Of a DNA stretch of 64,000 nucleotides, positions 33,196-63,254 are shown in pieces. The stretch spans positions 27,220-91,219 of the forward strand of contig CAYPYS010000004.1 in NCBI GenBank assembly GCA_964415355.1, in the 5' to 3' direction. This DNA is from an uncultured Planctomycetia bacterium. GTDB lineage: Bacteria > Omnitrophota > Gorgyraeia > Gorgyraeales > Gorgyraeaceae. Within the stretch, counting starts at the first letter, position 1, and the number at the start of each line of letters is the position of its first letter. The notes under the pieces were generated by a model. The model saw nothing but the letters and a program-made list of their open reading frames with translations. It did no database searches and was not told where the DNA came from. The position numbers and the translations under genes are program-made.

Positions 33196-33507
33196 ATGAG
33201 AAAGCGAAAAACTGCTCCGGCAGGCATAGGGAACATTCTTGATAAGGTAATAAAGAAGATAGAAAAAAAGGGGCCGGGGAAAAAAGAGAATGTGCTGGCT
33301 GCGTGGCAAAAGGCGGCTGGAAGTAAGGCCGCGGGCCATTCCAGGCCAGCGAACATAAGGCGCAGGGTACTGACAGTAGAGATAGATTCATCCACCTGGT
33401 TTTATGCGTTGAACTTAAAAAAGAGGGGTTTGTTGAAAAGGCTCAAGAAAGAGCTGGGCGAAGAGACCTTAAAAGAAATAAGATTTAGAATGGGCGACAT
33501 AACTTAA
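33196..33507 (+). CDS. DUF721/DciA-like small protein (putative replicative helicase loader class)
   Basis: W..AAG...A.HSRP......VLTVEIDSSTWFYALNLKKRGLLKRL...LGEETLKEIRFRMG pattern typical of DUF721. Sits in the position between dnaN and gyrB. Confidence 0.55.
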   Translation: MRKRKTAPAGIGNILDKVIKKIEKKGPGKKENVLAAWQKAAGSKAAGHSRPANIRRRVLTVEIDSSTWFYALNLKKRGLLKRLKKELGEETLKEIRFRMGDIT

Positions 33508-33540
33508 CTTTACATTTCAACAACGTTAAAGTGTAAAGTT
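33506..33540. repeat. REP/MITE-like 35-bp palindromic element, copy 1 (form A)
   Basis: AACTTTACATTTCAACAACGTTAAAGTGTAAAGTT flanked by T..A. Overlaps the dciA-like TAA stop. Confidence 0.9.
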
Positions 33541-33562
33541 AGCAAAAGATAAAAGAGGGGTT

Positions 33563-36037
33563 GTGGCGAAAAAGGTCAAGGCAAAAGCAGAAGATAATAA
33601 AGAGGTCAGTGTGAAAACAAAAGCTGGGAAGGCGCCGCAGGGGTCTCAGGGGAAATACGACGCGCGGACTATCCAGGTCCTGGAAGGCGCTGACGCGGTT
33701 CGTAAGCGGCCTGCCATGTATATAGGCGACGTGTCCACGCGGGGGCTGCATCACCTGGTGTATGAGGTGGTGGACAACTCTGTCGACGAGGCAATGGGCG
33801 GCTATTGCAAGAACATAACCGTAACAGTGCACATGGACAACAGCGTCACTGTTACTGACGATGGCCGCGGTATACCCGTGGACATGCACAAGACCCAGAA
33901 AAAACCCGCTGTCGAAGTAGTGCTTACCACGCTTCACGCTGGAGGAAAATTCGACCACCGCTCGTATAAGGTATCGGGCGGGCTGCATGGCGTTGGCGTG
34001 AGCGTCGTGAATGCATTGAGCGAGTGGCTGGAGGTGGAGATAAAAAGAGACGGCAAGATCTACCACCAGGAGTATGAGCGGGGCAAGACCGCTTCCAAGC
34101 TTACTGTAGTGGGCAAGGCAAAGACTCAAGGCACAGCAGTCACCTTTAAAGCTGACAAGGAGATCTTCAAGGGTTCTCTGGAGCTTTCGTTCGAGACGCT
34201 TTCCAACAGGCTCAGGGAGCTCGCGTTTTTAAACAAAGGCCTTAAGATATCATTAGAGGACGAGAGAAAAGATAAAGAGGCAGAGTTTTATTATTCTGGC
34301 GGCATCATATCATTCGTAGAACATTTAAATAGAAACAAAAACGCGCTGCACAAAAAGGTCATCTATTTCTCGGGCGAGAAAGATGGGGTCTCGTGCGAGA
34401 TCGCGCTCCAATATAACGACGCATATTCTGAAAGCATATTTACCTTCGTAAACAATATAAATACGATCGAAGGTGGCACGCATCTGAGCGGGTTTAAGTC
34501 TGCGCTGACAAGGACAGTTAACCAATATTGCAAGAATAAAAACATGCTGAAGAGCTCTGATGTAGCTATTTCTGGCGATGACATACGCGAGGGGTTGACT
34601 TGTGTTATAAGCGTCAAGGTGCCCAACCCACAGTTTGAGGGTCAGACAAAGACAAAGCTTGGCAATAGCGAGGTAGAGGGCATAGTCGCTTCTATCGTAA
34701 ACGAGAACCTCAGTTCATATTTTGAAGAACACCCCTCGGTCGCGAACAAGGCCATTGAAAAGGCAATACTCGCTGCCAGGGCAAGAGAGGCTGCAAGAAA
34801 GGCCAGGGAGCTCACCAGGCGCAAGGGCGCACTGGACTCTACTTCGTTGCCGGGAAAACTAGCAGATTGTTCTGAGCGGGACGCGAGCATTTGCGAGCTT
34901 TATATAGTAGAAGGAGATTCAGCAGGCGGGTCTTCAAGGCAGGGCCGCGACAGGCGGTTTCAGGCAATACTTCCGATAAAAGGAAAGATTTTGAACGTAG
35001 AAAAGGCGCGTCTTGACAAAGCACTTGCCAATGAAGAGATCCGCACGATTATAAGCGCGCTCGGCTCAGGCGTGGGCCAGGAATTCAATCTGGAGAAGCT
35101 GCGGTATCACAAGGTGATCCTTATGTGTGACGCTGATTCAGATGGATCGCACATACGCACGCTTCTGTTGACGCTCTTTTTCAGGCAGATGCAGCAGCTG
35201 ATAGAAAAAGGGCATGTCTATATAGCCCAGCCGCCTCTGTATAAGGTAAAGAGGGGCAAGCGCGAAGAGTATATAGAGACTGAAAAACAGATGAACAACT
35301 TCTTGTTTGACCTTGGCACAGATGGCATGACCCTTACGAGACGCAAGAACAAAAAGACCTTTAAAGACAAGCAACTCAAAGAGCTTCTATATCTTGTTTC
35401 AGAGTTTGACAGGCTGGCATGGGCTATAGAGCGCCGTGGAGTGGAATTGTCAAAATACCTTGGTTTTAGGCATAAGAAGACCAAAAAACTACCTGTTTAT
35501 ATGGTAAAAGTGGAGGGAGAAGCCCAATTCTTATATGATGATAATGAGCTGGCCAAGGCAATAAAGAAGCTTGAAAAAGAGCTCGGCAAAGATGTTGAAA
35601 TAGGTAAGAAGAGCGGCCATGTCATTGAATTTTATGAGGCAAGGGATACGGAAAAGATATTCGAAAAGATAGATAAGCTTGGCTTTGACATAGAGCAGAT
35701 CTTTCAGCCCGATGAAAGCTCGAAGAAAAAACTGTTTAAGATGGAGTCAGAAGACGATATAAAAGAGCTTGATACACTGAAGGAGTGCCTCGAGTACGTG
35801 AGAGAAGTTGCTAAAAAAGGCCTTCATATACAGAGATATAAAGGCTTGGGCGAGATGAATCCTACGCAGCTGTGGGAAACCACCATGGACCCGGGGACGC
35901 GCACGCTTTTAAAGGTCACAATGGAGGACGCGGTCGAAGCGAACGAGATGTTTACCGTGCTCATGGGCGACCAGGTCGAACCCAGGAAAGAGTTCATAGA
36001 CAAATACGCGCTTGAAGTCCGCAACCTCGACATCTAA
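33563..36037 (+). CDS. gyrB: DNA gyrase subunit B
   Basis: GTG start. GHKL ATPase, TOPRIM (EGDSAGG) and C-terminal tail motifs. Confidence 0.95.
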
Positions 36038-36070
36038 CTTTACATTTCAACAACGTTAAAGTGTAAAGTT
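36036..36070. repeat. REP/MITE-like element, copy 2 (form A)
   Basis: Overlaps the gyrB TAA stop. Confidence 0.9.
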
Positions 36071-36094
36071 AAGCTATTTTTTAGGAATAATAAT

Positions 36095-62208: not shown

Positions 62209-62241
62209 CTTTACACTTTAACGTTGTTGAAATGTAAAGTT
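62207..62241. repeat. REP/MITE-like element, copy 12 (form B)
   Basis: Overlaps the glmU TAA stop. Contains TTGAAA positioned 17 nt upstream of TATAAC ahead of prs. Confidence 0.9.
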
Positions 62242-62268
62242 AGAGCCATTATAACAAGGAGCGTATAT

Positions 62269-63207
62269 ATGAATAAGACTGCTGCTATTTTTACTGGTAA
62301 TTCCAATCCGGTGCTGACTAAAGAAATAGCCAGATGCTTGAAGATGCCTATGGGCAAGGCTTCGGTTGGGGCCTTCAGCGAGGGAGAGATAAAGGTAAAG
62401 ATAGAAGAGAATACCAGGGGCAAAGATGTCTTTGTGGTGCAGTCTACATGTCCGCCTCCAAATAGGAATCTGATGGAACTTTTGATCTTGATTGACGCGC
62501 TCAAGAGGGCATCTGCGAAGAGGATTACAGCGGTGCTGCCTTATTTTGGATATGCAAGGCAGGATCGCAAGGACCAGCCTCGCGTCCCGATCACTGCAAA
62601 ACTCGTGGCAAATCTATTGACGACTGCAGGTGCGGACAGGGTGCTGACAATAGACCTGCACGCAGGTCAGATCCAGGGATTTTTTGACATACCTTTGGAT
62701 CATTTATTTGCGATTAACGTTTTTGTAGATTATTTCAAAGAGCTCAAAGTGAAAAACATAGTGCTGGTTTCTCCTGATGTAGGAGGCATAAAGACGGCGA
62801 GGGCCTACGCAAAGAGGTTTAAAGCACCCCTGGCTATAGTTGATAAACGCAGGGTTTCGACGGATGACATAGAGGTGATGAATATATTGGGAGAGGTTAA
62901 AGGTAAAAACGTTGTAATAGTAGATGATCTCGTGGCAACTGCAGGATCTCTGGTGGAAGCTGCAAGCGCATTGAAAAAGGCCGGGGCTAAAGATATATAC
63001 GCGACTGTGACGCACGCCGTGCTTTCAGGTCCTGCAATAAAACGCATTGAAAATTCTCCTATAAAGAAGTTATTCGTGACAAACACTATTCCCGTAGAAG
63101 ACGGGAAGAAGCATAAAAAGATAAAGGTGCTTTCTATAGCACCTCTTTTGGCTGATGCAATAAAAAGGATCCACAACGAAGAGTCAGTAAGTTGTTTATT
63201 TGACTAA
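62269..63207 (+). CDS. prs: ribose-phosphate pyrophosphokinase
   Basis: RBS AAGGAG. MNKTAAIFTGNSNP.. PRPP-binding motif VVIVDDLVATAGS. Confidence 0.9.
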   Translation: MNKTAAIFTGNSNPVLTKEIARCLKMPMGKASVGAFSEGEIKVKIEENTRGKDVFVVQSTCPPPNRNLMELLILIDALKRASAKRITAVLPYFGYARQDRKDQPRVPITAKLVANLLTTAGADRVLTIDLHAGQIQGFFDIPLDHLFAINVFVDYFKELKVKNIVLVSPDVGGIKTARAYAKRFKAPLAIVDKRRVSTDDIEVMNILGEVKGKNVVIVDDLVATAGSLVEAASALKKAGAKDIYATVTHAVLSGPAIKRIENSPIKKLFVTNTIPVEDGKKHKKIKVLSIAPLLADAIKRIHNEESVSCLFD

Positions 63208-63219
63208 CTGCAAAGCCTT

Positions 63220-63254
63220 AACTTTACACTTTAACGTTGTTGAAATGTAAAGTT
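63220..63254. repeat. REP/MITE-like element, copy 13 (form B)
   Basis: Exact 35-mer, 13 nt after the prs stop. Confidence 0.9.

Follow-up and report, generated by a model that had tools for sequence, protein, structure and literature searches.

Among the short dispersed palindromes described in bacteria, repetitive extragenic palindromic (REP) sequences, such as the GTAG-tagged families of Stenotrophomonas (SMAG) and Pseudomonas, are imperfect palindromes of 20-40 bp found as near-identical copies outside genes, mostly downstream of them, and can nest with other palindromes. Their GTAG ends often supply a TAG stop to the flanking open reading frame (ORF) (Di Nocera et al. 2013, PMC3733652). 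[quoted passage not shown] RUP, a TA-targeting MITE of the IS630 type, carries stop codons in all six frames (Delihas 2008, PMC2229807), and Correia elements are without a known transposase.

Here we describe a dispersed 37-bp palindrome in a 64,000-nucleotide stretch of DNA (hereafter the window) from an uncultured 'Planctomycetia' bacterium that GTDB places in the Omnitrophota (GenBank contig CAYPYS010000004.1, positions 27,220 to 91,219, forward strand). It resembles REPs in its length, in its extragenic siting mostly downstream of genes, in the nesting with another palindrome, in the stop codons that its ends supply and in the near identity of its copies, likely hundreds when extrapolated from the sampled density. 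It differs from them in lacking a one-sided GTAG/CGTC tag, in its symmetric flanks and AT-rich stem, in having TA at both ends and in supplying TAA, which it does in about half of its copies; no REP-associated tyrosine transposase (RAYT) was found in the DNA searched. With the TA-targeting MITEs it shares terminal inverted repeats bounded by TA, intergenic sites, predicted RNA hairpins, stops in every frame and insertion differences between related genomes. Unlike them, it has only 33 bp plus TA, made of two abutted arms around a 3-nt loop, and its link to stop codons is much stronger. On balance, we favour the reading that this is a clade-specific family of very short, non-autonomous, TA-bounded palindromic mobile repeats, the functional equivalent of REPs and TA-targeting MITEs. 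Full-text literature searching returned no description of such repeats in Omnitrophota and, as far as could be found, this is the first case in that phylum.

A first-pass annotation of the window had proposed a 35-bp REP/MITE-like element in thirteen copies. Twelve matches to its 35-mer are found at ≤3 mismatches where dinucleotide-preserving shuffles expect 0.00, and the thirteenth, with 5 mismatches, belongs to a diverged subfamily; all thirteen copies are therefore where they had been placed (Table 1), bounded by TA on both sides. The proposed length needs correction, as the 35-mer is preceded by T and followed by A in every copy. The unit is 37 bp and reads TAA...TTA (TAACTTTACA, 17 nt, TGTAAAGTTA) in two forms, A and B, which are mutual reverse complements. 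It is a near-complete hairpin in which positions pair from 1-37 through 17-21 around a 3-nt loop (AAC or GTT); the two 17-nt arms have no bulge and only two mismatches, the non-Watson-Crick positions 11/27 and 14/24. The loop also replaces the AACGTT-centred core that had been suggested, while the 9-10-bp perfect terminal repeats hold for 11/13 copies, in which the outer 10-mers match perfectly. The copies at 56004 and 59450 have C opposite C at arm position 4/34. Read from the sequence, the unit has stop codons in all three frames of both strands.

Our description of the family draws on 110 copies, pooled from three lineages whose DNA differs by about 10-13%. Nearly all 37 positions carry 1.8-2.0 bits of information; the content is lower at positions 4, 11, 14, 20, 24, 27 and 34, and falls abruptly outside the terminal inverted repeats TAASTTTACA / TGTAAASTTA, leaving a weak C-Y...R-G extension (0.4-0.6 bits at -2, -1, +1 and +2) and about zero further out. 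TA bounds both ends in around 97% of the copies. Covariation links positions -1 and +1, which are T..A or C..G (Fisher p = 3e-4, and p = 0.004 inside the main subtype). Changes in the arms are likewise compensated: at position 4/34, 85 copies have C-G, 23 have G-C and 2 have a mismatch, at position 6/36, 67 sequences have CG and 18 have GC, 8/34 and 9/33 covary too, and the rarer pairs GTATACA/TGTATAC and GTTCACA/TGTGAAC are also found. The 23 copies (21%) with G-C at 4/34 form a G-type subfamily (TAAGTTTACA...TGTAAACTTA), in which AAC/GTT becomes AAG/CTT to give TAAG...CTTA ends. The two commonest sequences account for 26 and 18 copies and share the same two internal imperfections, which argues for copying from a master sequence rather than independent selection of hairpins.

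In the window, 8 of the 13 copies provide, with their TAA, the first in-frame stop for the plus-strand gene upstream (nine had been claimed). The other five lie 11-23 nt past a gene, a tRNA or a tRNA fragment, or are the second of a tandem pair, and all copies are outside ORFs apart from the shared stop codon. A similar picture emerges from the 72 pooled copies that have an upstream ORF of at least 100 codons: in 33 the repeat supplies the stop (distance 0), none begins 1-4 nt after the stop, 16 begin 5-15 nt, 12 begin 16-40 nt and 11 more than 40 nt after it. The absence of copies at 1-4 nt is explained by the C-Y flank preference, which conflicts with the purine that ends the stop codon. These counts, together with the sharp TA-bounded ends of the 110 copies, bear out the earlier description of a dispersed palindrome tied to stop codons and gene 3' ends.

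When the window core is rebuilt without the elements, 8/18 stop-codon TAs are occupied compared to 5/167 other non-coding TAs, a gene-end bias far stronger than uniform TA choice would give. This bias fits the non-neutrality of most other positions (promoters, leaders and ribosome-binding sites), and it fits host use of the hairpin equally well. In the latter case the repeat would be a host-selected 3'-end signal for each cistron (a terminator, mRNA stabiliser, RNase processing site or translation insulator), and its repetitiveness would be secondary. We consider this quite unlikely, for reasons that come largely from relatives, even though the preferential occupation of stop TAs and the siting of 85% of the copies with a clear upstream gene within 40 nt of its stop both speak for it.

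Stop codon usage itself differs between genomes. TAA stops dominate in the repeat-bearing window core (13/18 plus-strand genes), compared to TAG at 8/10 gene ends inspected in a repeat-free relative (L081, locus 7500-19336). The difference is partly due to the stops that the repeat supplies.

Next, we compared the same junctions across lineages, using syntenic loci from three relatives with around 10-13% DNA difference (L014/L078, L022 and L023) that were recovered via protein look-ups. Empty sites, which bear on the earlier suggestion of a TA target-site duplication, do exist in relatives. At the gyrB|gyrA junction, L078 and two more distant relatives, L079 and L080, have a single TA in 'ATC TAA' only, followed in these three by 2-21 nt and ATG. 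The filled site in the window reads 'ATC TA[ACTTT...AAAGT]TA AGC...', that is 'ATC TA[33 bp]TA A', and the pair would thus fit a C-TA-A stop in which TA was duplicated. At this place L078 reads 'TAACCTTACAAAG', and the solo TAA-bearing arm there, TAACCTTACA, looks like the decayed remnant of a copy.

The junction between the genes for the N- and C-terminal subunits of a split transketolase (tktN and tktC) is found in several states. It is empty in L014 ('TGA tct TA gg'), holds a G-type copy 6 nt past the TGA in L022, and in L023 carries a different GC-rich hairpin at the same place. In the window the TGA of the relatives is gone and tktN uses the TAA of the repeat, with the protein end (..ELGA) and the right junction (AACGAT..) unchanged, which suggests a loss of 6 nt that would leave the gene dependent on the repeat.

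Other junctions vary in the same manner. L022 is without a copy at hisG|TPR (the tetratricopeptide repeat gene), at prs|L25, where there is a 19-nt spacer only, and at the second spoVG position; glmU|prs holds unrelated sequence in L014 and L022. The site of copy 7 (56004) is empty in L022 and flipped in L014. At the dciA stop L078 carries its copy in reverse, and at the stop of the 38-codon ORF (site 54909) L014 has a reversed copy and L023 one with the same ends and a different interior. Among the sites shared by the window and the L014 lineage, 4/6 pairs match best as reverse complements with 0-2 mismatches. The subtype can differ per site as well: the tktN and tktC copies are C-type in the window and G-type in L022. 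Such gain, loss, replacement and homogenisation argue for a mobile or concertedly evolving repeat and not for independently evolved terminators.

The GC-rich hairpins of L023 form a family of their own (CCCGGTTCGAGGTTAAACCTCGAACCGGG, -24 kcal/mol) at the tktN, tktC and spoVG junctions (3508-3536, 4513-4570 and 5843-5871), which retains just the first 5-7 bases (TAAST..) of the AT-rich repeat. It appears from this comparison that one hairpin family replaced the other at these sites or invaded it. A second motif, with the flanks AAATTCGCACTTA ... TGTGCTCATTTAA(G)GAG around a hairpin of variable sequence and conserved pairing, is found in L014, L062 and L081 (Table 1), always just upstream of a gene start (prs, L25 or S18). 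The motif is absent from the window, and Rfam gives no match to it; it may represent a structured leader or a further mobile family.

How widely is the repeat spread? The closest named proteins to those of the window are from Candidatus Omnitrophota, with gyrB 89% identical to a metagenome-assembled genome (MAG) of 'Ca. Gorgyraea atricola'. The core of the window genome has 17 copies in 40 kb (coordinates 33.5-74 kb, which takes in the window core and the next 10 kb on its right), or about one copy every 2.4 kb, a density measured in DNA that was not chosen for carrying the repeat. In an exact-match scan with one genome per species, CAYULJ01 ('Planctomycetia') was the only MAG among the matches listed, with at least 7 loci that have only the repeat in common with the window. 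A degenerate-pattern search found the repeat on 54 short contigs of one metagenome assembly, JACKQG01, many of which start or stop at a copy. Overall it is present on more than 60 other contigs, and the viral contigs searched contain no copy.

L079, L080 and L081 (more distant; the L081 tktC is 80% identical) also contain no copy and have the same gene order with very short spacers, suggesting that the repeats entered a pre-existing compact order. On the sequences compared, only a small clade of Candidatus Omnitrophota carries the repeats. At 99.7-100% identity to the window, fourteen contigs taken from the JGI, ENA and Logan assemblies contain no length differences. Accordingly, the arrangement is not an assembly artefact, and every copy is fixed in the population.

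The first-pass annotation had also noted that the copies are confined to the core half of the window, with none in the AT-rich cluster at 1-30.4 kb. We found no copy there even at ≤10 mismatches. As a statement about the window the confinement stands; as a sign of an origin-linked function it fails, since the spread over more than 60 other contigs means that the limit reflects the cluster and not the origin. This cluster has a G+C content of 0.34-0.41, compared to 0.39-0.48 elsewhere in the window, and it has pyrimidine-TA-purine stops yet no copies. By its sequence it is a lineage-specific island. It comprises around 25 genes directly upstream of dnaA, is rich in B12-binding radical SAM and glycosyltransferase-like proteins, and has no homology to what lies upstream of dnaA in L078; L079 and L080 have the usual rnpA-yidC-jag-parA-parB at that place. 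A 119-nt internal duplication in the island breaks some assemblies.

We then asked what could mobilise the repeat. A full-length IS630/Tc1-like transposase with matching repeats, as the earlier annotation had envisaged, was searched for in around 330 kb of related DNA and did not turn up. A solo-arm scan of all loci found remnants only. Other hunts covered the ORFs between close copy pairs and a PHROGs scan of 150 ORFs from element-bearing contigs, with candidates then checked against Pfam, PHROGs and NCBIfam. Among the 150 ORFs, transposases are limited to an IS481-like fragment and two ISNCY genes (NF033594; E = 1e-98 and 4e-107). We rejected all of these as the source, their ends and surroundings being without similarity to the repeat arms. 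They lie on JACKQG01 contigs (L064 3-959; L068 422-1708 and 1783-2688), and the two ISNCY genes are 35% identical to each other. ORFs with an AAA_22 match were rejected as well, being PEP-CTERM-type ATPases.

A classical REP family would be moved as single-stranded hairpins by a RAYT, with no target duplication and with the TA as part of the stem. The 37-bp imperfect palindrome, the high copy number, the extragenic 3'-end siting, the within-genome homogeneity and the compensated arm changes that keep the hairpin (6/36, 8/34 and 9/33) all agree with this, as do the stop codons that REP ends are known to supply (PMC3733652) and the other GC-rich hairpin family inside the same L023 sites, nested palindromes having been reported for REPs (PMC3733652). 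We nevertheless hold it to be unlikely. Once the 110 copies are put in one orientation, their flanks show two-fold symmetry (C-Y...R-G), with no one-sided unpaired GTAG/CGTC tag. Orientation is unbiased: forms A and B number 54:56 overall, and 18:15 and 18:21 relative to the upstream gene. REPIN-like close doublets are rare (60766/60805 and L067), and a crude RAYT motif scan (HUH...Y..NP) of 329 kb found no Y1 transposase, nor was there one among the 150 ORFs. Families with the same 10-bp ends and other interiors, such as TAACATTACA-TACCGCG...GCGGTA-TGTAAAGTTA (L023 209-256), suggest that the ends and not the hairpin are recognised; copies fused with a second interior type are found in L014 (7825) and L008 (14489). 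From the two-fold symmetry, the random orientation and the shared ends with different interiors we lean towards a DDE-type enzyme, acting on double-stranded ends, over a strand-specific Y1 enzyme.

The transcript-level properties of the repeat bear on the idea of a host 3'-end signal. Predicted RNA hairpins are stable (-13.3, -15.0 and -22.1 kcal/mol, z-scores -5 to -9), the region is without canonical terminators at gene ends, and different hairpins occupy the same junctions elsewhere (L023; L080 after dciA; L081 after tktC), all of which a host signal would account for. The earlier suggestion of a classical terminator hairpin placed at stops is not upheld. Rho-independent terminators have a G+C-rich stem with a T-tract behind it. 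The copies have an AT-rich stem, fewer than 3 G-C pairs in the outer 10 bp, no T-tract after the stem and flanks that are not T-rich, and a terminator scan calls none of them. A copy separates tktN from tktC, two subunit genes of one enzyme whose junction is empty in L014, and the island, with its 25 genes, has none. The repeat is thus unlikely to be a strong terminator. A host signal of any other type is also difficult to reconcile with the many junctions that are empty in close relatives and with L079, L080 and L081, which are devoid of copies. More than 40 copies have identical loops and the same internal mismatches, which requires copying and not convergent selection. Furthermore, either orientation gives one G-U pair and one C-A mismatch, and the random orientation shows no sign of selection on the transcribed strand.

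Milder effects are easier to envisage. In E. coli, REPs that lie ≤15 nt from a stop make ribosomes stall and reduce expression (work summarised in PMC12306157), and Correia hairpins are cut by RNase III (PMC2229807). By analogy, comparable mild effects of the present hairpin are plausible.

The first-pass annotation had pointed to a TTGAAA hexamer of the element as a -35 ahead of prs. The hexamer is indeed present, in TTGAAA-N17-TATAAC, and the -10 directly abuts the AAGGAG Shine-Dalgarno sequence, so that a prs transcript would start after it and have no ribosome-binding site; the promoter reading therefore falls. The matches of the element at 42396 and 60820 are only minimum-score, and we rejected a promoter role for its TTGAAA. 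Promoter-like matches number 42 in 45000-64000, compared to a shuffle mean of 28.6. A known RNA family was rejected as well: at the gathering score Rfam finds tRNAs only, and around a copy there are chance-level palindrome matches.

Protein recognition sites on DNA can also be short dispersed palindromes, and the repeat could in principle be an attC-like, Xer/dif-like or DNA-uptake site, or a parS-like site near the origin. We find this very improbable as a whole. In integrons, attC sites carry RYYYAAC / GTTRRRY boxes, follow cassette ORFs and often hold their stop codon. The repeat resembles them in being an imperfect palindrome right after an ORF, with the stop often in the first box and with homogeneity within a genome comparable to the VCRs of Vibrio. 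Its Y-Y-TAAC...GTTA-R-R ends are similar to the inverse-core and core sites of attC, many single genes lie between two copies, and dnaA and the origin region are in the window. C-type copies fit the YYTAAC...GTTARR boxes, with no preference at the outermost R/Y, but the 23/110 G-type copies read TAAG...CTTA and break the AAC/GTT of the boxes. The arms are also equal, without the extrahelical bases and unpaired spacer of attC, orientation is random, and the copies are dispersed among syntenic housekeeping genes whose order is kept in repeat-free relatives, so these genes are not cassettes; no integrase is seen nearby in the window. We accordingly rejected an integron attC despite the like ends, on structure, orientation (54:56) and synteny. 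An origin-linked parS-like site was rejected on its genome-wide spread (around 1 per 2.4 kb, more than 60 contigs), and strictly extragenic copies are unlike uptake sequences.

For the mobile repeat that we favour, the unit would be a 33-bp core (ACTTTACA...TGTAAAGT) bounded by TA in C-Y-TA-R-G sites. The target of IS630 is C-TA-G-like. With spacers of about 1-30 nt, few places can take an insertion without harm, and a TAA or TAG stop that follows a pyrimidine would offer one in its TA. Because the core starts with A, insertion at a stop rebuilds TAA and leaves the protein unchanged, and since stops occur in all six frames no protein would be extended by more than about 10 residues. Genes may then come to depend on the repeat TAA, as proposed for tktN, and in a decaying copy the TAA-bearing arm would persist. 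Copies would stay near one master with randomised orientation, either through turnover (re-insertion or gene conversion) or through flipping of the interior between the perfect arms. Hairpin-loop 'flip-flop' inversions of this type occur in chloroplast non-coding DNA, where related genomes can likewise differ at one site in the orientation of the interior between the inverted arms; the present case differs in being a multi-copy bacterial repeat, and independent re-insertion is also a possible cause. Co-transcribed with operons, the repeat would form an RNA hairpin of -13 to -22 kcal/mol that starts in the stop codon, with likely mild effects on mRNA 3'-end stability or processing, or on ribosome release.

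Several observations weigh against a mobile repeat. No transposase with matching ends was found in the 330 kb searched, and 33 bp plus TA is, to our knowledge, far shorter than any known MITE. The gyrB stop is the only clean empty site, other filled and empty pairs differing by extra bases. All copies are fixed, with no gaps or length differences among the 14 near-identical contigs. At shared sites the non-coding flanks are only 55-95% identical and the copies far better conserved, which selection on the sequence, as under a host signal, could also explain. Finally, two descriptions suit the unit, a palindrome of 39-41 bp and a 33-bp core whose palindromic C-Y-TA-R-G target has its TA duplicated, and the two are inseparable because TA is its own complement.

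A stronger version of the mobile repeat is possible, if doubtful. The repeat would be the smallest bacterial transposable unit seen so far, in effect two abutted terminal repeats, adapted to streamlined genomes and targeting the TA of TAA/TAG stops that follow a pyrimidine. Genes would become dependent on it by stop-codon capture (tktN, and the solo arms at the giant ORF and at L078 gyrB), one hairpin family after another would take over the same cistron ends in this clade, and the host may use the hairpin as a general 3'-end mark in place of classical terminators.

The repeat adds Omnitrophota, an uncultured phylum whose genomes are compact, to the groups that show the REP/MITE phenomenon. 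It is an unusually clear case of a selfish repeat that shares bases with stop codons, around half of its copies being the stop, and it bears on how repeats persist where intergenic space is close to nil and on how genes come to depend on them. It reveals no new kind of mechanism. In practice, the repeat breaks metagenome assemblies and is a sharp marker both for the clade and for foreign islands in it. It also produces false TTG-start ORF extensions: the spurious ORFs reported earlier are real as such, with TTG starts inside the element, for example at 62224..63207 and 33539..34129 (minus strand).

Table 1. Copies of the repeat, neighbouring features of the window and loci of the second motif in relatives
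Feature	Coordinates	Strand	35-mer start	Form or sequence	Gene whose stop is the repeat TAA (last base of stop)	Remarks
Copy 1	33505-33541	.	33506	A, exact consensus	DciA/DUF721 gene, 33196-33507 (33507)	TAA at 33505-33507
Copy 2	36035-36071	.	36036	A, exact	gyrB (36037)	cleanest filled site
Copy 3	39839-39875	.	39840	B, exact	intein-bearing gyrA (39841)	tRNA-Glu 15 nt downstream
Copy 4	42375-42411	.	42376	B, exact		14 nt past duplicated 3' part of tRNA-Glu
Solo left arm	52756-52765	+		TAACTTCACA	3410-codon ORF	probably remnant of an older copy
Copy 5	52780-52816	.	52781	fully paired; 3 changes close both internal mismatches		RNA fold -20.8 kcal/mol
Copy 6	54909-54945	.	54910	B, exact	conserved 38-codon ORF (54911)	
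Copy 7	56004-56040	.	56005	A, hybrid arms (C at 4 and 34)		16 nt past stop of presumed bS22-like 29-codon ORF
Copy 8	58440-58476	.	58441	A, exact	tktN (58442)	
Copy 9	59450-59486	.	59451	A, hybrid arms	tktC (59452)	
Copy 10	60766-60802	.	60767	G-type subfamily	spoVG (60768)	
Copy 11	60805-60841	.	60806	A, 1 mismatch		tandem, 2 nt after copy 10; tRNA-Gln 8 nt downstream
Copy 12	62206-62242	.	62207	B, exact	glmU (62208)	supplies TTGAAA of promoter-like match before prs
Copy 13	63219-63255	.	63220	B, exact		11 nt past prs stop, 22 nt before L25 start
Low-GC island	1-30407					
Internal duplication in island	25273-25391, 26262-26380					
gyrA with intein	36095-39841					1248 codons
tRNA-Glu	39891-39968					
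Repeat of tRNA-Glu 3' part	42303-42360					last ~57 nt of tRNA-Glu
Segment bracketed by tRNA-Glu repeats	39891-42360					2.4 kb
MBL-fold gene	40409-42181					
Giant ORF	42526-52758					3410 codons
38-codon ORF	54795-54911			MKRKKHRFVRLSKVRAYLLLKSIKRQLKSQEKKLSHHA		upstream of hisG
29-codon ORF	55898-55987			MPCGRKRKRRKISTHKRKKRRRRDRHKKK		between hisG and TPR gene
Promoter-like match before prs	62227-62255			TTGAAA-N17-TATAAC		AAGGAG at 62256
Second motif, L014	10666-10723, 11768-11826					
Second motif, L062	170-226					
Second motif, L081	17037-17083					

The genes of the window follow the order dnaA, dnaN, dciA, gyrB, gyrA (with the intein), tRNA-Glu, a metallo-beta-lactamase (MBL)-fold gene, the 3410-codon ORF, phoU, a Na/Pi transporter gene, hisG, the TPR gene, the split transketolase, ispE, spoVG, tRNA-Gln, glmU, prs and L25. 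Copy 5 lies between the giant ORF and phoU, which are convergent. The giant ORF is a single frame with B12-binding/radical SAM, several methyltransferase and MutS_V domains, according to the Pfam matches of the same gene in L008 and L082.

The segment between tRNA-Glu and the repeat of its 3' part has the MBL-fold gene, with a Pfam Anti-Pycsar_Apyc1 match, as its sole gene. In L080 the tRNA directly follows gyrA and the 2.4-kb segment is absent. The segment looks like a small islet integrated at the tRNA. The intein of gyrA has Intein_splicing and LAGLIDADG matches; L078 (8001-12032) and several other Omnitrophota have an intein in gyrB instead (1337-1353 aa).

Finally, two small basic ORFs around hisG are conserved. 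The 29-codon ORF, which we take to resemble ribosomal protein bS22, is kept in L014, L022, L023 and L081, and the 38-codon ORF is kept in L014 and L023.

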